Of a DNA stretch of 64,000 bases, positions 7,571-63,925 are shown in pieces; position 1 is the stretch's first letter, and every line of letters starts with the position of its first letter. Origin of the DNA: an uncultured Mageeibacillus sp. (GTDB lineage Bacteria > Bacillota > Clostridia > Saccharofermentanales > DTU023). Under the pieces are notes generated by a model. The model did not search any database. It saw only the letters and a program-made list of their open reading frames with translations, and was not told the origin of the DNA. Both the position numbers and the translations under genes were made by a program. The stretch spans positions 3,035 through 67,034 of the forward strand of contig CAZSFQ010000006.1 in assembly GCA_964606165.1 (NCBI GenBank). Direction: 5' to 3'.

Positions 7571-7651
7571 CGTCCTGGCCCCTCTTTTTTGTTCATTTTC
7601 CCGTCCGTTCTGATTGCGCGGCAAGACACGCTCATGGTAGCATAGGCACAG

Positions 7652-7691
7652 TTATAATAATTATGACTTTGTAATGATTACAAAGTCATAA
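7652..7691. promoter_or_regulatory. Fur-family (PerR-like) operator region with two 7-1-7 boxes, the second inside a 31-bp perfect palindrome
   Basis: Box 1 is TTATAATAATTATGA (7652-7666) and contains TATAAT. Box 2 is TTGTAATGATTACAA (7669-7683). It is the core of the palindrome TTATGACTTTGTAAT-G-ATTACAAAGTCATAA (7661-7691). The region lies about 60-100 nt upstream of prx. Confidence 0.65.
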
Positions 7692-7752
7692 AGGAAAGCT
7701 GCCCTCCCGTCAGGAGACCGGGCAGAAGAGGAAGAAGAAAGGAATATTAAAA

Positions 7753-8361
7753 ATGCCAATGGTCGGAAAACAAGCTCCCTTGTTTGAAGCAGCCGCTTAC
7801 CACAAGGGAAAGTTCACCAAGGTGAAACTGGAGGACTACAAAGGTCAATGGGTGATGCTGTGCTTCTACCCCGGCGACTTTACCTTTGTCTGAGCGACTG
7901 AGGTGTCTGCAGTTGCAGCCAGGTATGAAGAATTTGAGAAACTGGGCGTTCAGGTCCTGTCGATTTCTGTTGACAGCGAATTCGTCCACAAGATCTGGAA
8001 TGACGTTGAGCTGTCAAAAATCGCCGGCAAAGACGTCCCCTTCCCCATGCTGTCCGACTCCTCGGGCGCCGTCGGCGATCTCTACGGCGTCTACGACCGC
8101 GAAGCGGGCGTTAATGTCCGCGGCCGTTTCATCATCGATCCTGACGGCAAGATCCAGGCCATGGAAGTTCTGACCCCGCCGGTAGGCAGAAACGTCTCCG
8201 AGGCCATCCGTCAGATCAAGGCCTATCAGCTGGTCCGCGAAACAGGCGGCAAGGAAGTTACACCCTCAGGCTGGCAGGAAGGCGGCAAAACGCTCAAGCC
8301 CGGCATCGACCTTGTCGGAAAGATTGCGGATCACTGGACCATTGCCGACTCCTACAAGTGA
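7753..8361 (+). CDS. prxU: peroxiredoxin (AhpC/Prx1 type) with selenocysteine (TGA, codon 47) in place of the peroxidatic Cys
   Basis: From the ATG at 7753 the frame reads [63 protein letters not shown]... The TGA is at 7891-7893, where the family has FTFVCPTE. The same frame continues as ORF 7903..8361, which is Prx-like throughout. Confidence 0.8.
7898..7922 (+). promoter_or_regulatory. candidate bacterial SECIS hairpin
   Basis: Starting 5 nt after the UGA: lower stem CUG/CAG, then G-C, a bulged U, an upper stem CUGC/GCAG and an apical loop AGUU. The bulged U and the GU in the loop resemble the E. coli fdhF minimal SECIS. Confidence 0.5.
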
Positions 8362-8389: not shown

Positions 8390-8803
8390 GTGAGCTACCG
8401 GACGGTCGAATTGCTGAGAGGGCACGGGATTAATCCTTCAAGCCAAAGGGTGCATATATACCATTACCTGACGGCCTCCAAGGAACACCCGACCGTTGAT
8501 GACATCTACGCAAAACTGCAAAAAGACGGTCATCTCTTCTCACGGGCAACCGTGTATAACACGGTTAACCTTTTTCTCGAAAAAGGCCTGATCCGCACCG
8601 TCCAGACGGAAGCGCATGAGATGCGATATGACGCTTCACCGGGTTTCCACGCGCACTTCAAATGTGAGTCATGTGGCCTTATTTTGGATATGCCAATGCA
8701 GGAGCCGCGGCCGGATGAGGTTGGCAGCCTGAAGATTTGCCGGACAAACGTCGTCTTCAGCGGCCTGTGCGGCCAATGCCAAAAGAAGGAACACAAGGAA
8801 TGA
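8390..8803 (+). CDS. perR: Fur family transcriptional regulator, PerR-like
   Basis: HPTVDDIY, SRATVYNTVNLF, FHAHFKCESCG and a C-terminal CGQC. GTG start at 8390 with an AAGGAAG RBS. Co-directional with prx, 28 nt downstream. Confidence 0.8.
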   Translation: MSYRTVELLRGHGINPSSQRVHIYHYLTASKEHPTVDDIYAKLQKDGHLFSRATVYNTVNLFLEKGLIRTVQTEAHEMRYDASPGFHAHFKCESCGLILDMPMQEPRPDEVGSLKICRTNVVFSGLCGQCQKKEHKE

Positions 8804-8826
8804 CGGAAGCTTATTGCTTTGTTTAT

Positions 8827-8859
8827 CCCCGGCCGCTTCCCGCGGCCGGGGATTTTTTT
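8827..8859 (+). terminator. rho-independent terminator of the prx-perR operon
   Basis: CCCCGGCCGC ttccc GCGGCCGGGG followed by ATTTTTTT. It overlaps the stop codon of the convergent gene. Confidence 0.8.
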
Positions 8860-10333
8860 AGCGTTGCCCCAGCGGTTCCCCCAGGCTGATCCTGCCGTCC
8901 CGCCTGGTCGGGGGAATCTTATTCTTGCGAAAATACTCGATGATATTGTCCTGGGCGGAGGTACTGACCACGCGTACACGGCCCTTGTCAGCCAATTCCT
9001 CATGGGTTATTCCCAATGTTTCAGCGACGATGCCATAGTGGTAATCCTGCATGGCGATCCGGTATTGGGTATCCTTGCCCGGCGGTTTTCCGTCAATGAG
9101 GATCCTGGTGACATCACCGTCCCCGCCGACCTCCAGGCGCAGTTCAGCGTTCCACTGATAAAACTCACGCGAACCTTCTTTGTAAAGGGTCCTCATCAGA
9201 TGTCTCAGCATACGCTCCAGAACCTGGCCGGTGACAGAAAAACTGATCATGGCCTCATCGTATGGGTAAAGCTCCATCAAATCAGACCGGGTTACCAGGC
9301 GTGACAGTATGGGCTTGCGGATGGAGCCTGAGGCGATCAAAACGATATCGACCCCCAGCTGGAATCGGAGAATATCCGAAAACAGATTGCCGAGTTCCGT
9401 TTCGCGGAAGCGGTCCGCGTGTTCCATCTCGTGCGGCAGCCGGCAGATCACCGTATTATATTTGCCATCGACTTCCTCCTGATACTTGGACAGGAGCTCG
9501 TCCATGACCGGATCGGCCGGGCAATGCGTGTCGTCGATAGGAACCGCCTGCCAGGAAAATTCGTGGACGGAGTTGGTGTCCATGTTGATGATCAAGTCGT
9601 AACGCCCGATGAAGTCGGTTCCCGACCCTACCTGGGCGATCAGGATATCATTGACGCGCTCGGGCTCTTCCAGCATGGTGTGGCTGTGTCCGCCGATGAT
9701 GAGATCCACGCCGATTTCCGGCGGCAGGAGGGCGGCCAGTTTCTTGTCCTGCTCGAAGCCGATATGGGTTAAAAGAACGGTCAGGTCAATGTCGACGTCC
9801 TTGTAGCTGTTGCAGATGTACTCGACCTCTTCCGCGGCGTCCTCAATACTGATGAAGGTGCCGACCAGTGGTTCGCTCTTGCTTTTGGCGATCACTTCCT
9901 CGGTGACAATCCCGATAAAAAGTATTCTGATGCCGTCTGTTTCAATGATGTGATAGGGCTTGAAAAGATTGGCGCCCGTTGGTTTGATGTAGAGATTGGC
10001 GTTGACGATGGGGAAGTTGGCACAGCGCTCAAGAAACATGAGATGGGGAAAGCCGTAATCCGTCTCGTGGTTGCCCAGGGTCACCACATCAGGTTCCAGC
10101 ATATTCATAACCAGTATGGTGGAAATCCCCCTGTACTCCTGATCGATGATGGATCCCTGGAGCATGTCACCCGAGATGACGTAGAGCACCGGGTCGGTCT
10201 CCTCCTCCCTGACCTTGTGAACATAACCTGAAAGCCTGCTCATGCCGCCGACCATCTTGTCACGTGTTTCCCTGGCGAAGAAGTCGCCATGCATGTCATT
10301 CGAGTGCAGCAGCACCATGCGTCGAAGATCCAT
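8858..10333 (-). CDS. bifunctional metallophosphatase/5'-nucleotidase family protein (no signal peptide seen)
   Basis: LLHSNDMHGDF, GNHETDYG and GGHSHT calcineurin-like motifs plus a 5'-nucleotidase C-terminal domain. ATG at 10333 with a GGGAGG RBS. Confidence 0.85.
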   Translation of the reverse strand: MDLRRMVLLHSNDMHGDFFARETRDKMVGGMSRLSGYVHKVREEETDPVLYVISGDMLQGSIIDQEYRGISTILVMNMLEPDVVTLGNHETDYGFPHLMFLERCANFPIVNANLYIKPTGANLFKPYHIIETDGIRILFIGIVTEEVIAKSKSEPLVGTFISIEDAAEEVEYICNSYKDVDIDLTVLLTHIGFEQDKKLAALLPPEIGVDLIIGGHSHTMLEEPERVNDILIAQVGSGTDFIGRYDLIINMDTNSVHEFSWQAVPIDDTHCPADPVMDELLSKYQEEVDGKYNTVICRLPHEMEHADRFRETELGNLFSDILRFQLGVDIVLIASGSIRKPILSRLVTRSDLMELYPYDEAMISFSVTGQVLERMLRHLMRTLYKEGSREFYQWNAELRLEVGGDGDVTRILIDGKPPGKDTQYRIAMQDYHYGIVAETLGITHEELADKGRVRVVSTSAQDNIIEYFRKNKIPPTRRDGRISLGEPLGQR

Positions 10334-10479: not shown

Positions 10480-10507
10480 TTGACAATCCAAAATCGTTAT
10501 TTATAAT
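10480..10507 (+). promoter_or_regulatory. strong sigma-A promoter candidate for the lipoprotein/apbE operon
   Basis: TTGACA (10480-10485), a 16-nt spacer, then TATAAT (10502-10507). Confidence 0.65.
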
Positions 10508-10552
10508 GGATACGTGGCAAAATCATGTCATAATTTTGGAGGAGGAAATCCT

Positions 10553-11548
10553 ATGAAAAAAATAATCGTTTTGGCCCTTGTCGCAGTCCTGGCTTTTGGG
10601 CTGGTCGCATGCAGCAAGAAGCCCGAGGCAGTTAAAACAGGCTTTGGGGTCAGCTTCAGCAACTACAATTCAAAAGACGTTGACGAGGGCGCGAATGGCA
10701 AGGTCGATACACAGGCCTACGCCGCCGGTGTCATGGTCGACAAGGACGGCAAGGTAGTCAAGTGCACCATCGATGCCATGATGTCCGTCTTTGACTTCAA
10801 TGAGGAAGAAATCCTGACCGGACCCGAAACCGTTTTCAAAACCAAGAATGAGCTCGGTGACGATTACGGCATGAGAAAAGCCTCGCCGATTGGAAAAGAG
10901 TGGAATGAACAGGCCGCCGCCTTCGCGGAATATTGTGTTGGCAAGACAGCGGCCGAGATCGAAAAAATCGCCGTTTCAGATGACGGCAAGGCCACCGACG
11001 CAGACCTGGCTTCTTCTGTCACCGTTCCGGTGAAGGGCTACCAGACTCCTGTCCTCCTGGCCATCGCCAACGCCGTTGACCTGGGCGCCAAGGCCACCGA
11101 TAAGCTGGGTCTCGGCATCGTCGGGACCGGCGAGCAAACCGTGGTCAAGGGAGAAGAAGACAAACCCGCGACCGCTGTCGCTTACAACTTCTATTGTGTC
11201 CTGACACTGAACGCCGATGGCAAGATCAGCTCCTGCTACTACGATGCTTCCCAGGGCAAGTTCAAGGTGGAAGACGGCAAGATCACAACTGATCTGATGG
11301 CTGAAATCAAAACCAAGAACGCGCTGGGTGACGACTATGGCATGAGGAAAGCATCCCCGATCGAGAAGGAATGGGACGAGCAGGCCGATGCCTTCGCCAA
11401 GTACGTGACCGGCAAGACTGTCAGCGACGTCACCGGAATGGCCCTCAAGCAAGGTGCTCCTGACGTTGCGGATCTGGCTTCCAGCTGCACCATGCATGTG
11501 ACCGATATGATCACTGCCCTCGAAAAGGCAGCCGCAACAGCCAAGTAG
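10553..11548 (+). CDS. lipoprotein with two tandem FMN-binding-like domains (PplA-like; putative ApbE substrate)
   Basis: Lipobox LVAC after MKKIIVLALVAVLAFG, with a GGAGGAGG RBS. There is an internal duplication: FKTKNELGDDYGMRKASPIGKEWNEQAAAFAEY versus IKTKNALGDDYGMRKASPIEKEWDEQADAFAKY. Each repeat ends in D-L-A-S-S-(V/C)-T. Confidence 0.55.
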   Translation: MKKIIVLALVAVLAFGLVACSKKPEAVKTGFGVSFSNYNSKDVDEGANGKVDTQAYAAGVMVDKDGKVVKCTIDAMMSVFDFNEEEILTGPETVFKTKNELGDDYGMRKASPIGKEWNEQAAAFAEYCVGKTAAEIEKIAVSDDGKATDADLASSVTVPVKGYQTPVLLAIANAVDLGAKATDKLGLGIVGTGEQTVVKGEEDKPATAVAYNFYCVLTLNADGKISSCYYDASQGKFKVEDGKITTDLMAEIKTKNALGDDYGMRKASPIEKEWDEQADAFAKYVTGKTVSDVTGMALKQGAPDVADLASSCTMHVTDMITALEKAAATAK

Positions 11549-23943: not shown

Positions 23944-24972
23944 TTATGGCGCCGGGACAGCCAGCGAAAGGTCTTTTGCCCAGCAAAAGTCGATTGGTGT
24001 GTTCCCTTTGGCACGCTTGTAAGCCTTTTCCTGGTGAGCCCTGCTGACAAGATCCTTTGTTTTAATTGTTCCCACTTGGCTAAAGACCTGATCCAGGACT
24101 TCAACTTCCGATCGCGCCAGTTCTTTGACCTGGAAATCCGATTGAGTTTTGAACCGGAATCCCAGATTTTCACCGACTGGGGCTATTTCATAATGCACAC
24201 CTTCCAGCTTGACAATGCAATCGTATTTTTCCGGAGCCGGCCCCATGGGCAGCGCACTGTAAACCAGACCGCTGATCGCTCTTCCTTTGTACTTGTAATG
24301 AAGCATATCTGAGTACCAAAGCATTTTCATAAGCCTGACTGTGTACAGGTATTTCGTTTTCTTCGCAAGGTAGTTGATCATTTCAACCACTTTGCTCAAA
24401 TCCAGATCCACCCCGCCCCTGATGGCTTCATCTTGAAATCCCGCATAATGAGCTTCGATCGAGGTGGTCAAATACCAGTTCTCCTTTTTCGAGAAGGCCT
24501 TCATCGCGTTCTCAAGGTACTTCCCGTATGCCCTTTCCGTGATCTTGTGCCTGGATTTTTCCAGTACCTCCATAAACCACTTGGGATCCTCAGCAATTTT
24601 TCTCAAGATGGCGTCATGCGCGACATCTTGTACCTGGTGGTTTTCATAGCGGGTAATGGTTGCTTTCCCCCAGTCAAGCAGGTCGGAAAAATCTTTCTGG
24701 CTGATTCCATATTGCTTTCGAATCCTGATGATGTCGCCCGAGGTCAGCAAAGCTCTCTTCTCCCTGTAGGCATCTTTCATGGCCAGATCGTTGGCCTTGA
24801 TCAGGTCTTCTGTTTCAAGCAGATTGTCGGTATGGGGGCAATACTCGTAAGTTGGCGCAAACTCCACCTCTTCACCTTTAAAAGTTACAGTTTCGGGCAA
24901 ACGGACCCTTTGAACATCATGCTCTTCCATACAGTCGAAGCAAAACTTTCTTACTGTTTCCAGAATCTCCAT
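23944..24972 (-). CDS. fusion of an MqsA/YgiT-like zinc ribbon, an XRE-type HTH and a Panacea (DUF4065/SocA) domain; antitoxin-like
   Basis: N-terminus: CFDC...(28 aa)...YCPH, then LTSGDIIRIRKQYGISQKDFSDLLDWGKATITRYENHQ (HTH). C-terminus: LMKMLWYSDMLHYKYKGRAISGLVYSALPMGPAPEKYD...LVSRAHQEKAYKRA (Panacea-like). G+C is clearly lower than in the flanks. Confidence 0.75.
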   Translation of the reverse strand: MEILETVRKFCFDCMEEHDVQRVRLPETVTFKGEEVEFAPTYEYCPHTDNLLETEDLIKANDLAMKDAYREKRALLTSGDIIRIRKQYGISQKDFSDLLDWGKATITRYENHQVQDVAHDAILRKIAEDPKWFMEVLEKSRHKITERAYGKYLENAMKAFSKKENWYLTTSIEAHYAGFQDEAIRGGVDLDLSKVVEMINYLAKKTKYLYTVRLMKMLWYSDMLHYKYKGRAISGLVYSALPMGPAPEKYDCIVKLEGVHYEIAPVGENLGFRFKTQSDFQVKELARSEVEVLDQVFSQVGTIKTKDLVSRAHQEKAYKRAKGNTPIDFCWAKDLSLAVPAP

Positions 24973-25035
24973 TTTCCCGCCTTTCTCTCACGATCCGTAA
25001 GGAAAAGTACTTTTGCCAAAAGGATACTCAGCAAA

Positions 25036-60314: not shown

Positions 60315-62162
60315 CTACTTTTTAACGCCCTCCCGTACCAGGGGGCGGACTACTCCTGCCAGATAAAGTGAACCGCAAATACAGATCATGGCGCCCTTTT
60401 TCCGCGCCCGGCTGACCGCTTCCGCCATGGCCTGCCCAATGTCCGGCAGGTCAATCAACTGCATGCGCATTGGATCAGGCACAATGGATGCCAGTTCCTC
60501 AATCAGTTTTTTTGCTTCAATGCGCCTCACGTCAGGTGGTTCGGTCGTAATGACATCAGTAACTGTATAGGGCGGATCCAGGAAGAGGGCCTGAAGCATT
60601 TCCTTGTGTTCTTTGTCTTTCAGAAGACCGATGACAAAGACAACCGGTCTGTCACCGGCAAGTTTCCCCAGCGCTTCCCGCAGTCCGAGCCCCGCCTGCA
60701 CATTGTGCGCGCCATCGAGCAGGATGAGGGGATCCTGTGCCACAACCTCCATACGGGCAGGCCAGACACAGTCCGCGATCCCGTGCTGGACCGCGGCCTG
60801 ATCCGCCATGCCGGCAGAAAGCGCCGCCTCTCCCGCCATCAAGGCGTAGATGGGCTGGTAGGGGCCGAGGAGCCGGGTCCTGTACAGACGGCCATCTTTT
60901 TTTGCCTGAAACTCCTGCCCGGACCAGCCATAGGACAAAAGACCGAAGTCATGGTAGCCAAGGTAGGTAAGCGGCGCCGAAAGAGCCTGACAACGCTGGT
61001 CAAGCACCCGCCGGGCCTCAGCCGCGTCGGACGCAGAGAGCAGGGCATCCTCAGGCGCGTAGGCAAAGACGGGGCATCCCTCTTTAATAATACCCGCCTT
61101 TTCTCCCGCGATCTCGCGCATGGTATTTCCCAGCCGCTCCATGTGGTCGAAGCCTAGGGCTCCTATCAGGGAGGCCAGCGGCTTTTCAATCACATTGGTC
61201 GAATCAAGGCGGCCGCCCATGCCCGTTTCCAAAACAAGGACGTCACAGGCCTGCTCCTGAAACCATAGAAAGGCCAGCGCCGTCATCATGTCAAACTGGG
61301 TCGAGGCCACCCCGTCCCTTGCGGCAATGACCCGCGCCGCTTCCCCAATTTTGTCCATCAGGCGGCCGATTTCGGCATCCGGTATTTCTCCGTATGTCTG
61401 ATCCCCGTCATAACGGGCCAGATCCTTCACACCATCCAGGACACGGACCCTTTCATTGAAGCGTTCCAGGTAAGGTGAAGTGTACCAGCCGACCTTATGG
61501 CCAGCCTGGCACAGGATATGGGTCAGGTAGCTGCTGATTGAACCCTTGCCGTTTGTCCCCGCGATATGAAAGGCGGGACAGGATCGCCACGGGTCACCCA
61601 ACTCCCGGTAAAGCACCGACCCGCGGTCGCGTTTGTCGCTGTCAGGAAATTTGTTGGCACTTTGTATCATGGCAATGGCGCGGTCAAGCAGATCCTGTGG
61701 ATCCGGCCCGGGATCATCAGCCTCCCCGGCTGAACGAAAGACATAAAATTTCCCCGAGATACGGTTGGCCAGGACAACGAAGGCCAGCGCCACCAGTTTT
61801 GCCAGATCCAGCATGCCCGGGATCAGGACTATCTGCCAGTTCAGCAAATGATTCATCAGGTAGATGCCTGCATATTCAAAAACAAATGAAATCGTCAGCC
61901 TGGACCCGACAAAACGGATAAATTCCTGCCACACGCTGGATGTCGACCGGAAAACCCAGATACGGTTCAAAATGTAAGCCGACAATACAGACAGGACGAT
62001 GGCGGGGACATCGGAGTAATACCACTTGTCAAGACCCAGCCACCGGTTCATGAGCATATAGACCAGCACATTGACAATGGTGGCAATGACGCCGGTTACA
62101 AAATATTTCAAAAATTCAATCGAAAAAAACAGCTCGGTTAAGTAGTATCTTGCTTTTTTCAT
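60315..62162 (-). CDS. folC: fusion of a GtrA-like four-TM domain with folylpolyglutamate synthase/dihydrofolate synthase
   Basis: Residues 1-145 are GtrA-like (FLKYFVTGVIATIVNVLVY...LNRIWVFRS...NRISGKFYVFRS). The rest is FolC (HIAGTNGKGS, LETGMGGRLDSTN, LDGAHN). It is one uninterrupted ORF, and its ATG overlaps the upstream stop codon (ATGA). Confidence 0.8.
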   Translation of the reverse strand: MKKARYYLTELFFSIEFLKYFVTGVIATIVNVLVYMLMNRWLGLDKWYYSDVPAIVLSVLSAYILNRIWVFRSTSSVWQEFIRFVGSRLTISFVFEYAGIYLMNHLLNWQIVLIPGMLDLAKLVALAFVVLANRISGKFYVFRSAGEADDPGPDPQDLLDRAIAMIQSANKFPDSDKRDRGSVLYRELGDPWRSCPAFHIAGTNGKGSISSYLTHILCQAGHKVGWYTSPYLERFNERVRVLDGVKDLARYDGDQTYGEIPDAEIGRLMDKIGEAARVIAARDGVASTQFDMMTALAFLWFQEQACDVLVLETGMGGRLDSTNVIEKPLASLIGALGFDHMERLGNTMREIAGEKAGIIKEGCPVFAYAPEDALLSASDAAEARRVLDQRCQALSAPLTYLGYHDFGLLSYGWSGQEFQAKKDGRLYRTRLLGPYQPIYALMAGEAALSAGMADQAAVQHGIADCVWPARMEVVAQDPLILLDGAHNVQAGLGLREALGKLAGDRPVVFVIGLLKDKEHKEMLQALFLDPPYTVTDVITTEPPDVRRIEAKKLIEELASIVPDPMRMQLIDLPDIGQAMAEAVSRARKKGAMICICGSLYLAGVVRPLVREGVKK

Positions 62163-63850
62163 AATTCATCGACATCTTCCGGATCGTCACGTTCCGCACG
62201 CCTGTGGATTGACGGCCGTATACCCGGCGGCCGCTTGTCCGGCCGGCGGTCTTCTTTTTCTTCACGCCCGAACAGGGTTTCTTTCAGTTCCTGCCAACCA
62301 TCCTCAGGGTCAGCTTGCGGACCAGTTTCAGTTCCCAGGTCTTCGGACAGCTCCTCTTCCTCTTGCGCCACCAGCGGCATGACTTCCTCATCAAATTCCG
62401 GCAGGGGACTGTCGTCTCCATCGAGATCGGCAACCGTCAGCCCGGGCTCAAAGTCAGCGGCCCGCTTGGCCCGGATAAAGAACCAGACAGCGAGAGCCAG
62501 CATCAACAAAACCACAAGCCCTGTCCCCACCACCAGGTACAAGGGCAGCTCCACGCCAAACAAATTGACTGTCAAGCCTCCGGCTGAATCCTCCGTCCCC
62601 CAGGGGTCTGTCTCAACCGGCTCTGTGTCTGAAGGGAGGTCCGGCTCTGTATCGGTGGGATCCGTGGCGGGCGATTGATAGGCGGGATCCAAAAAACTTC
62701 CCGAAACAGGCACAAGCCACAGATCGGAACGGATGAGCGAGTCGAGTACGGCATCGTACAGGCAAAGGACTTTTTCTTCCGCGTCATTGACCCGCACCGC
62801 GATCAAATAGAGATCTCCGGGCAGAAGTTTTGCTTCATCAGACAGCTCTTCGGGCTCCAATCCCGGTTCCGAAAGATGAAACAGCTGATCGTAAACAGTC
62901 TTGGAAACGAAGCTACCCTCGACCGGTTTATAGGCCGGGACATCTTTCTCCCAGACACTGACTGTCGTCAGTTCGAAACCTTGCGGGATCATTTCCCCGG
63001 GAATCACCGAAAAGGTATAAAAACGCGACGACCATCCCGTCCGCAGATAGGGAACGAAAACCGAAATATCCGTATCGTAAAGGTAAAAACGATTTTCCCC
63101 TTGCCTGTCAGTCAGCCAATAGAGCGTATAGGGCAGGGTTTCCGATCTGTACCCTTCCAGGTACTTGCCTTGCCACTCTATTTCCGCCGGCACATACGAA
63201 TTCGGGATGATTTCATCCTCCGGCAGGGATACGGGAACAGAAAGCTCAACTCCATCGTACCGTTTGCCGATGACGGTTTCCCCCGGATGTCGCGGCTGCG
63301 TTTCTTTGGGAGTCGTAGTCGTGGTAGTCCGGGGGGCAGTCGTGGTGGTCGGGGGAGGGTCGGACAGGGTGATGGTCCGGGAAGCGCCTGTGGAAATACT
63401 ATTTTCCACTGGGTCATACACACCATCGCTGGCCTTGGTGATCTTGATGGTCACCGATCCCTTTGCAATTACTTTGAACTTGATGCTGATGATCTTGTCA
63501 GCTGCCTTGGCGCTACCCATGTAAGCAAATACTGCTGTCATAGGAGAAGTACTCCCGATGCTCACTTCATTTGTCAGACCCGACACGTTACTGGCGCTGA
63601 CGTACTGGATCAAGTTGTTATCATACTCGATTGTGAAGCTGCAGCTGAGGGTATCAGCCTTGGGGCTGAAGCCGAGCGTGACCGTGAAGGTCTGCCCCAG
63701 ATAGGCTGTTTCCGGTGCCGAGATGGTGGCCTGTCGGTTGATGGCGTAAGCATCCGCCCCTGGCAAAGCCAAAAATATCAGCAAACCCGCGATCAACAAG
63801 GCAGACAGTTTCTTTATTTTCATAGACTCAACGCACGTTCTTTCTTTCAT
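62159..63850 (-). CDS. surface/membrane protein with an N-terminal cohesin-like domain, a Pro/Thr linker, a TM helix and an acidic cytoplasmic tail
   Basis: Signal peptide (KKLSALLIAGLLIFLALPGADA), a cohesin-like beta domain (FTVTLGFSPKADTLSCSFTIEYDNNLIQYV), PPPTTTTAPRTTTTTTP and a TM helix LYLVVGTGLVVLLMLALAVWFFI. An alternative start is the ATG at 63823. Confidence 0.65.
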   Translation of the reverse strand: MKERTCVESMKIKKLSALLIAGLLIFLALPGADAYAINRQATISAPETAYLGQTFTVTLGFSPKADTLSCSFTIEYDNNLIQYVSASNVSGLTNEVSIGSTSPMTAVFAYMGSAKAADKIISIKFKVIAKGSVTIKITKASDGVYDPVENSISTGASRTITLSDPPPTTTTAPRTTTTTTPKETQPRHPGETVIGKRYDGVELSVPVSLPEDEIIPNSYVPAEIEWQGKYLEGYRSETLPYTLYWLTDRQGENRFYLYDTDISVFVPYLRTGWSSRFYTFSVIPGEMIPQGFELTTVSVWEKDVPAYKPVEGSFVSKTVYDQLFHLSEPGLEPEELSDEAKLLPGDLYLIAVRVNDAEEKVLCLYDAVLDSLIRSDLWLVPVSGSFLDPAYQSPATDPTDTEPDLPSDTEPVETDPWGTEDSAGGLTVNLFGVELPLYLVVGTGLVVLLMLALAVWFFIRAKRAADFEPGLTVADLDGDDSPLPEFDEEVMPLVAQEEEELSEDLGTETGPQADPEDGWQELKETLFGREEKEDRRPDKRPPGIRPSIHRRAERDDPEDVDEL

Positions 63851-63860
63851 TTCAATTAAA

Positions 63861-63879
63861 AACCCGGGAACCCCCGGTT
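63861..63879 (-). terminator. short GC hairpin plus T-run downstream of the partial upstream gene
   Basis: On the minus strand: CCGGG ggtt CCCGG followed by GTTTTT. Confidence 0.4.
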
Positions 63880-63925
63880 CAATCGCAAAAAAATTATAGA
63901 CCTTGCAAGCCGGCCCTGACCATGG

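Follow-up and report, generated by a model that had tools for sequence, protein, structure and literature searches.

How is a peroxiredoxin gene to be read when a stop codon stands exactly where the catalytic cysteine should be encoded? The question is raised by positions 7753 to 8361 of a 64,000-nucleotide stretch of DNA, here called the window, from contig CAZSFQ010000006.1 of the uncultured Mageeibacillus sp. assembly GCA_964606165.1. A mechanical list of open reading frames (ORFs) gives only two fragments, one of 46 aa (7753-7893) and one of 152 aa (7903-8361). An earlier note on this DNA, made from the letters alone, had joined them into one frame opening at ATG 7753, with an in-frame TGA in the place of the peroxidatic Cys of a 2-Cys-peroxiredoxin-like protein. 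Both parts of that claim are borne out here. A single frame runs from ATG 7753 to the TGA at 7891-7893 (codon 47) and from there stays open to the stop at 8359-8361, and alignment to solved peroxiredoxins places the TGA at the peroxidatic position. We conclude that 7753-8361 is very probably one gene, encoding a selenocysteine (Sec) peroxiredoxin orthologous to PrxU of Peptoclostridium (Eubacterium) acidaminophilum, with UGA-47 decoded as Sec. The gene and its immediate signals are:

7737-7744, plus strand: ribosome-binding site (RBS) GAAAGGAA, 8 nt 5' of ATG 7753.
7753-8361, plus strand: prxU, 202 codons or residues, read as a selenocysteine peroxiredoxin of the AhpC/Prx1 fold.
7891-7893, plus strand: codon 47, a UGA in the peroxidatic place that is read as selenocysteine; TGA also stands in homologous codons.
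7904-7921, plus strand: predicted bacterial Sec insertion sequence (SECIS) hairpin, with wobble covariation, a G-U apex and synonymous-site conservation in the clade.

With U written as C, the product matches Pfam AhpC-TSA (E = 5e-39), and also Redoxin and the 1-cysPrx_C tail. Its best solved relatives are typical 2-Cys peroxiredoxins, namely Amphibacillus AhpC (1we0, E = 2e-47) and human Prx2, and the TGA aligns exactly with the peroxidatic Cys of both. It lies within the motif PGDFTFV-U-ATE, numbered P40-G-D-F-T44-F-V-U47 in the window protein. All four catalytic residues, P40, T44, U47 and R123, are present, with R123 invariant in our alignment A1. Towards the C-terminus, EVTPSGW (Thr170; codon 8260-8262) aligns with EVCPAKW of 1we0. 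The position of the start was judged from the RBS. The block GAAAGGAA is unchanged in all 8 aligned relatives, while its flanks diverge and conservation collapses further upstream, and because it is conserved ahead of ATG 7753 we take that codon to be the true start.

The protein is also recognised by models of its family. The score on NCBIfam NF040737 (peroxi_PrxU, an equivalog) is 355.7 bits, where the cutoff is 270 (E = 1.2e-106, with the match spanning positions 37-231 of the 233 in the model), and the AhpC equivalog TIGR03137 gives 204.9 bits, under its cutoff of 272. The type prxU was located by tblastn of plasmid records, on the 809-kb megaplasmid NZ_CP007453.1 of P. acidaminophilum DSM 3953. 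Its RefSeq annotation is 'prxU: thioredoxin-dependent peroxiredoxin', and its TGA stands at the same codon as that of the window gene. Over 100% of its length the window protein is 65.8% identical to type PrxU, so that the precedent to which the earlier note had pointed, PrxU of E. acidaminophilum, is a close one: 66% identity and a TGA at the same position. In reviews of selenoproteins in prokaryotes, peroxiredoxin (motif TxxU) is counted as an experimentally verified family, with Sohling et al. 2001 as the source (PMC13188914; PMC9312934). On the basis of the NF040737 score, the identity to the type gene and the listing in these reviews, the assignment to a known family is taken to be correct. 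The gene is a typical representative of the PrxU family, which is already described and curated, and it leaves what is known of selenoproteins and peroxiredoxins unchanged.

The TGA recurs far outside the window. A set of 89 loci was compiled from a one-genome-per-species scan (80 loci), from earlier loci and from the window itself. TGA stands at the homologous codon in 84 of the 89, and TGT or TGC in the other 5. The TGA forms span Bacillota, Synergistota, Chloroflexota, Acidobacteriota, Thauera, Thiobacillus, Desulfovermiculus, Neomarinimicrobiota and others. With the addition of a metagenome scan that had a Cys-type protein as its seed, 113 out of 120 motif-bearing loci had TGA. The Sec form is the rule in the PrxU-type subfamily of peroxiredoxins, at about 94% of sampled loci.

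Selection on the two halves of the frame was measured by comparing the window with 10 syntenic relatives, which are Saccharofermentanales, 'Mageeibacillus' and Clostridiaceae metagenome-assembled genomes (MAGs) of 80-94% protein identity. The ratio of nonsynonymous to synonymous divergence (dN/dS) is 0.04-0.16 for the 46 codons 5' of the TGA and 0.04-0.10 for the part 3' of it, at dS values of 0.2-2 and with zero frameshifts. Both halves are under strong purifying selection, and therefore both are translated in one frame. TGA is also the commonest true stop in the window, where it ends 11 of the 24 domain-supported genes. It is thus an ordinary stop here, and the code is the standard one with no reassignment. 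Judged by its recurrence, the selection around it, the genetic code and the start site, the TGA at codon 47 is a maintained sense codon, and it almost certainly encodes Sec. The sign of a lesion proposed in the earlier note, relatives with Cys beside inactivating changes, does not appear: the TGA is kept, the frame is intact and purifying selection acts on both sides of it.

A means of decoding the codon is suggested by the sequence directly after it. In the window the core stem of the predicted hairpin is formed by C7907-G7918, U7908-A7917, G7909-C7916 and C7910-G7915, beginning 13 nt after the TGA, and is closed by the apical loop A7911 G7912 U7913 U7914 (AGUU). Below the core, U7906 is either bulged (with the pair G7905-C7919) or mismatched with C7919 (with G7905-C7920 and U7904-A7921), and both registers are partly backed by sequence comparison. 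The stem start lies 10-13 nt after the UGA. The hairpin had been drawn from 7898 to 7922 in the first reading of this DNA. The upper part of that drawing stands, being 93% paired across 67 homologues, but its lower 3 bp (7898-7900 with 7920-7922) are not supported, at 31% paired.

The evidence for the hairpin comes from an ungapped alignment, A2, of 67 distinct TGA-form sequences, in which positions are numbered from the U of the UGA. The codons for Ser/Ala52-Ala53-Val54-Ala55 read TCN GCN GTN GCN', and the stem pairs are C17-G28, N18-N27, G19-C26 and C20-G25 around the loop N21-G22-U23-N24. N18 and N27 are both third-codon positions, and they pair in 67/67 sequences (AU 36, GC 14, UA 14, CG 3). 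The loop-closing N21 and N24, again both third-codon positions, form A..U 44 times and G..C 23 times, and nothing else is found. The covariation score is 0.367, against 0.127 ± 0.013 for shuffled alignments; it was equalled by none of 500 shuffles and far exceeds the score of every slid register. With the metagenome loci included, 77 of the 86 unique Sec forms make all five pairs and none of the 6 Cys forms does; this control is small at 6 unique sequences, the Cys-seeded metagenome scan having given almost only TGA forms. G22-U23 is found in 86/86 unique Sec-form sequences. Alignment to PrxU and to Cys orthologues, which had been suggested as a check on the Sec reading, thus gives the same Sec site in PrxU and no hairpin complementarity in the Cys forms.

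The hairpin is also conserved at synonymous sites within the window's own clade. Third bases are invariant in 6 of 64 four-fold-degenerate codons, and three of these 6 are the hairpin codons 53-55; outside them only 3 of 61 four-fold sites are invariant. The invariant wobbles at codons 53-55 therefore indicate that the hairpin is selected in the lineage of the window, which points indirectly to a working SelB. A SelB-type SECIS directly downstream of UGA-47 is supported by these comparisons, and from this RNA element we infer that Sec is inserted at UGA-47. The mRNA hairpin (4-6 bp) would recruit SelB with GTP and Sec-tRNA(Sec) to the ribosome, and UGA-47 would then be decoded as Sec. The covariation-supported consensus can serve as the basis of a search model.

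The other invariant four-fold wobble bases in the clade are those of codons 40, 44 and 46 (7870-7890), just 5' of the UGA, and most of the 67 sequences in the alignment have GTC directly before the TGA. Together these may reflect an effect of codon context on Sec decoding.

A different hairpin, 7894-7916, is the minimum-energy fold of this region (-10.6 against about -5.4 kcal/mol for the SECIS). It overlaps the SECIS and would sequester G7912 and U7913. As a functional element it was rejected: its wobble pairs are unpaired in 41 of 67 sequences and its score is that of the shuffles. It is probably incidental, and in the window's own mRNA it could compete with folding of the SECIS.

A number of results weigh against the Sec reading, some of them concerning the hairpin and some the machinery. 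Folding of the single sequence gives a z-score of about 0, with an energy no better than that of shuffles. RNAalifold found no consensus pairs in a 48-column alignment, and explicit counting of pairs was used instead. No SECIS family was matched in Rfam, either at the gathering threshold or at a permissive E-value. The above-chance case for the hairpin rests on sequence comparison and not on thermodynamics, and the Rfam result means only that there is no curated model for this hairpin. As for the machinery, ARAGORN found no tRNA genes, tRNA-Sec included, within the 64-kb window, and there are no SelA, SelB or SelD domains among its 20 largest ORFs. Absence of selABCD from the genome is nevertheless unlikely, because the SECIS is conserved in the window's own clade. 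A scan of the window for other TGA-interrupted genes gave noise at 57% GC and was uninformative.

It is instructive to see how relatives of the gene appear in public collections. A protein search gave 152-aa 'truncated' entries of 91% identity, on long contigs, and also entries of full length whose active site has a W. The DNA behind the fragment and W entries (loci L001-L008) has TGA throughout, and the W arose because the genes had been called under genetic code 4. The wrong public forms are fragments of 37/46 aa and of 152 aa, full-length entries with W and one with S (P0081, seen as a protein entry alone); misannotated entries are found among P0012, P0016, P0022, P0079, P0063, P0073 and P0081. 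It had been expected that automated pipelines generally miss such a gene. This is correct for the calls in the relatives, which are split or carry W, but not for NCBI, which has a dedicated hidden Markov model and whose RefSeq annotates prxU. The main value of the present analysis lies in the repair of the annotation of prxU and its close relatives, since misannotation hides an antioxidant selenoenzyme, and with it the use of selenium, in uncultured Clostridia of anaerobic digesters (Saccharofermentanales / 'Mageeibacillus'-like MAGs).

These public entries also bear on the two other ways of reading the TGA. UGA-47 might be read through without selenium, by a near-cognate tRNA inserting Cys or Trp or under a variant code, to give an ordinary Cys or Trp protein. 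Some public gene calls do place W at this codon (P0012, P0016, P0022, P0079), and no Sec machinery was seen in the 64-kb window. The W calls, however, stem from code-4 gene calling on TGA-bearing DNA, and in the window TGA terminates 11/24 supported genes. With Trp as the peroxidatic residue the enzyme would have no catalytic activity, and yet strong purifying selection acts on the gene. Generic read-through, moreover, would not select for a hairpin with an invariant G-U apex and covarying wobbles that is missing in the Cys forms. We therefore consider this reading very improbable. The other reading is that the TGA is a true stop, in a pseudogene or through a sequencing error, or with only the 152-aa ORF (GTG 7903) expressed; it agrees with the split picture that automated gene calling yields both in the window and in relatives. 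It is effectively refuted. The same TGA is found in 84/89 independent assemblies, and the 46 codons upstream of it have a dN/dS of 0.04-0.16 and are free of frameshifts at dS up to about 2. The 152-aa fragment would have lost two strands of the fold together with the peroxidatic residue, and the conserved RBS stands before ATG 7753 and not before 7903.

If Sec is the peroxidatic residue, what would resolve its oxidised form? From the chemistry of the family, the U47 selenolate would reduce H2O2 or an organic hydroperoxide and would itself become a selenenic acid. In typical 2-Cys peroxiredoxins the resolving Cys lies in the C-terminal motif EVCP and makes a disulfide between subunits with the peroxidatic Cys, and the window protein has Thr170 there. 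Of the 89 loci, 58 have T at the canonical resolving position and 20 have C, while A and M are each found in 5 and V in a single one. Thr is thus common at the resolving site in the family, and Thr170 is for that reason no mark of an unusual gene. Going by the residues at this site, the PrxU family is a mixture of '2-residue' and '1-residue' forms.

A further cysteine is present in many members of the family, in an N-terminal extension of about 35 residues with a conserved Cys motif, GCxRP or YCDRP, and a linker that is charged and of low complexity. The extension is found in 55 of 84 Sec forms and in 4 of 5 Cys forms (loci L004, L019-L025, L030-L088 and L089:3890-4000). The criterion applied was loose, accepting any Cys so long as the extension reaches 20 aa, and leaves 29 of 84 Sec forms without it, while a stricter motif search leaves 32. 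NF040737 covers the extension (model positions 1-36), and the window protein is unmatched over this part. The extension is missing in the window's clade and in the sampled Synergistaceae, Syntrophomonadaceae and Dehalococcoidia loci. An N-terminal extension of the window gene itself was considered and rejected, as the frame upstream has TAA at 7672 and TGA at 7675 (7672-7677), which fall within the candidate operator, and no start ahead. The syntenic clade as a whole is likewise unable to encode it. The biochemically described PrxU is reportedly 203 aa long, and because of this length and of the many Sec forms without a tail, the GCxRP tail is here treated as optional. Where it is present, its cysteine could be an alternative resolving cysteine.

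Since the window protein has neither the canonical resolving Cys nor the GCxRP tail, the most likely route is that thioredoxin or another external dithiol protein would reduce its oxidised Sec directly, in a '1-Sec' cycle. This recycling is the least certain step of our proposal, and what counts against it is Cys37. This residue (codon 7861-7863, in MLCFYPGD) lies ten residues before the Sec and is the sole Cys of the window protein. It is invariant in 89/89 loci, and it could be an internal resolving thiol. The earlier note had held that Thr in place of the resolving Cys would imply a 1-Sec mechanism. The Thr is indeed present, but given the invariance of Cys37 a 1-Sec mechanism is plausible and not implied.

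The alternative can be stated more precisely. Sec would be right, but Cys37 would attack the selenenic acid to form an intramolecular selenenylsulfide, which thioredoxin would then reduce, in an atypical 2-residue mechanism. Such a mechanism would fit the presence of Cys37 at every locus regardless of whether there is a canonical resolving Cys or an N-terminal Cys tail, and the fact that the same site is hydrophobic in ordinary AhpC/Prx1, where it is Phe, Val or Leu. Cys37 is, however, placed in strand beta-3, and it could be conserved for structural reasons or as a guard against over-oxidation. We know of no peroxiredoxin subfamily in which a buried beta-strand position is the site of the resolving Cys. 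A search of the literature for the mechanism of PrxU or for an N-terminal resolving Cys gave nothing specific, the original 2001 PrxU paper lying outside that search. We regard resolution by Cys37 as a tentative idea and a somewhat doubtful one, and prefer reduction of the Sec by an external dithiol protein. A broader idea, which we hold to be unlikely, is that the PrxU family has three interchangeable modes of resolving Sec: a C-terminal Cys (20/89), a GCxRP tail (about 55/84 Sec forms), or neither, as in the window protein with Cys37 only. If it is true that the tail Cys or Cys37 forms a selenenylsulfide, this would be a new resolving architecture for peroxiredoxins, and the window protein would be its minimal form.

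The surroundings of prxU suggest how its expression might be controlled. Beyond the RBS they contain:

7614-7643, plus strand: putative sigma-70 promoter, with -35 TTGCGC (7614-7619), an 18-nt spacer and a TG-extended -10 TGgTAGCAT (7635-7643).
7652-7691, no strand: candidate operator region, with the palindromes TTATAATaATTATGA (7652-7666) and TTGTAATgATTACAA (7669-7683), Per-box-like in a 7-1-7 arrangement.
8390-8803, plus strand: PerR-like regulator of the Fur family, with 137 aa and a GTG start, beginning 28 nt beyond the end of prxU.
8825-8860, plus strand: predicted intrinsic terminator after prxU-perR, a 12-bp stem with 10 GC pairs, then a T-run.

The promoter was proposed by reading the sequence, and a consensus promoter scanner made no call at this site on the plus strand. 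Its CATGGTAGCAT block is conserved in syntenic relatives. The two palindromes lie between the putative -10 and the RBS of prxU, and TTGTAATgATTACAA falls within a perfect 15-1-15 inverted repeat at 7661-7691 that is 100% complementary. Their cores, TTATAAT.ATTA and TAAT.ATTA.AA, are conserved in 8 syntenic MAG loci, and they match TTATAATNATTATAA, which we take to be the Per box consensus of B. subtilis, at 13/14 and 12/14 positions.

The earlier note had taken the peroxiredoxin gene to be co-transcribed with a PerR-like regulator, and a Fur-family ORF is indeed found 28 nt downstream on the same strand. It matches Pfam FUR (E = 2.9e-21) and has an HAH (HxH) motif and two CxxC motifs. The NCBIfam model that fits it best is one for PerR (NF052545), with 84.6 bits where 180 would be needed. 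The regulator falls under every PerR-specific NCBIfam cutoff, a point against the PerR part of the reading. The gene order, prxU followed by the fur-like gene, is kept in the syntenic loci L001, L002 and L003, and on the plus strand there is no terminator-like site between the prxU stop at 8361 and the perR start at 8390, and a strong one comes after perR (8825-8853). From the spacing, the gene order and the lack of an intervening terminator, prxU and the PerR-like gene are probably co-transcribed. A PerR-like repressor would bind both palindromes 3' of the -10, which would make the operon peroxide-inducible and autoregulated. On this arrangement, peroxide-responsive and autoregulated expression of prxU is a reasonable inference.

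Three ORFs elsewhere in the window are worth recording. A 354-aa ORF at 10484-11545 (plus strand), directly 5' of an ApbE flavin-transferase gene, has a lipoprotein-like N-terminus and two internal repeats (KNELGDDYGMRKASPIGKEWNEQAAAFA occurs twice) and has no Pfam match. An ORF at 23947-24987 (minus strand) combines helix-turn-helix and SocA/Panacea antitoxin domains, and a 588-aa ORF at 62162-63925 (minus strand) has a cohesin domain; both are unrelated to prxU. The cohesin ORF points to a scaffold of the cellulosome type, as would fit a Saccharofermentanales-like host.

It remains to compare the locus with known systems. Its regulatory region resembles the PerR regulons of Bacillota (B. subtilis ahpCF, katA, perR), in that the Fur-family regulator is nearest to PerR models and predicted TTATAATNATTATAA-type 7-1-7 palindromes overlap the promoter of a peroxidase gene. 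It differs in the score of the regulator (84.6 bits, PerR cutoff 180).

The hairpin can be compared with the SECIS of E. coli fdhF, a SelB-binding mini-hairpin, which has a bulged U17 and G23 and U24 in its loop. Both are short stems within the coding sequence 3' of the UGA, with a bulged or mismatched U below a 4-bp stem and a tetraloop of the form N-G-U-N', and in many PrxU homologues the loop is GGUC, identical to that of fdhF. The window element differs in lying 1 nt nearer to the UGA (U16, G22 and U23, against U17, G23 and U24), in its AGUU loop, in a lower stem that is weak and varies between lineages, and in having no Rfam model.

With AhpC/Prx1 (1we0; human Prx2, 1qmv) the window protein shares the fold, PxDFTFVxxTE and the catalytic Arg over residues 3-191 (E = 2e-47), as well as the C-terminal ...PxxW...TLKP region. 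It departs from them in having Sec for the peroxidatic Cys and Thr for the resolving Cys of EVCP, and its gene has no adjacent ahpF.

The closest comparison is with PrxU of P. acidaminophilum. The RefSeq model of that protein (WP_084481301.1) is 240 aa long with a 37-residue N-terminal GCARP extension that the window gene does not have, and its canonical resolving site is Ala (EVAPSGW), where the window protein has Thr. The type gene, furthermore, lies on a megaplasmid, and its regulator is not directly next to it. In other respects the two are alike: the UGA stands at the same codon, which is U47 in the 203-aa numbering, the SECIS codons follow the same pattern TCN GCN GTN GCN, the canonical resolving Cys is missing from both, and both have the cysteine of CFYPGD and a Fur-family gene in the neighbourhood.

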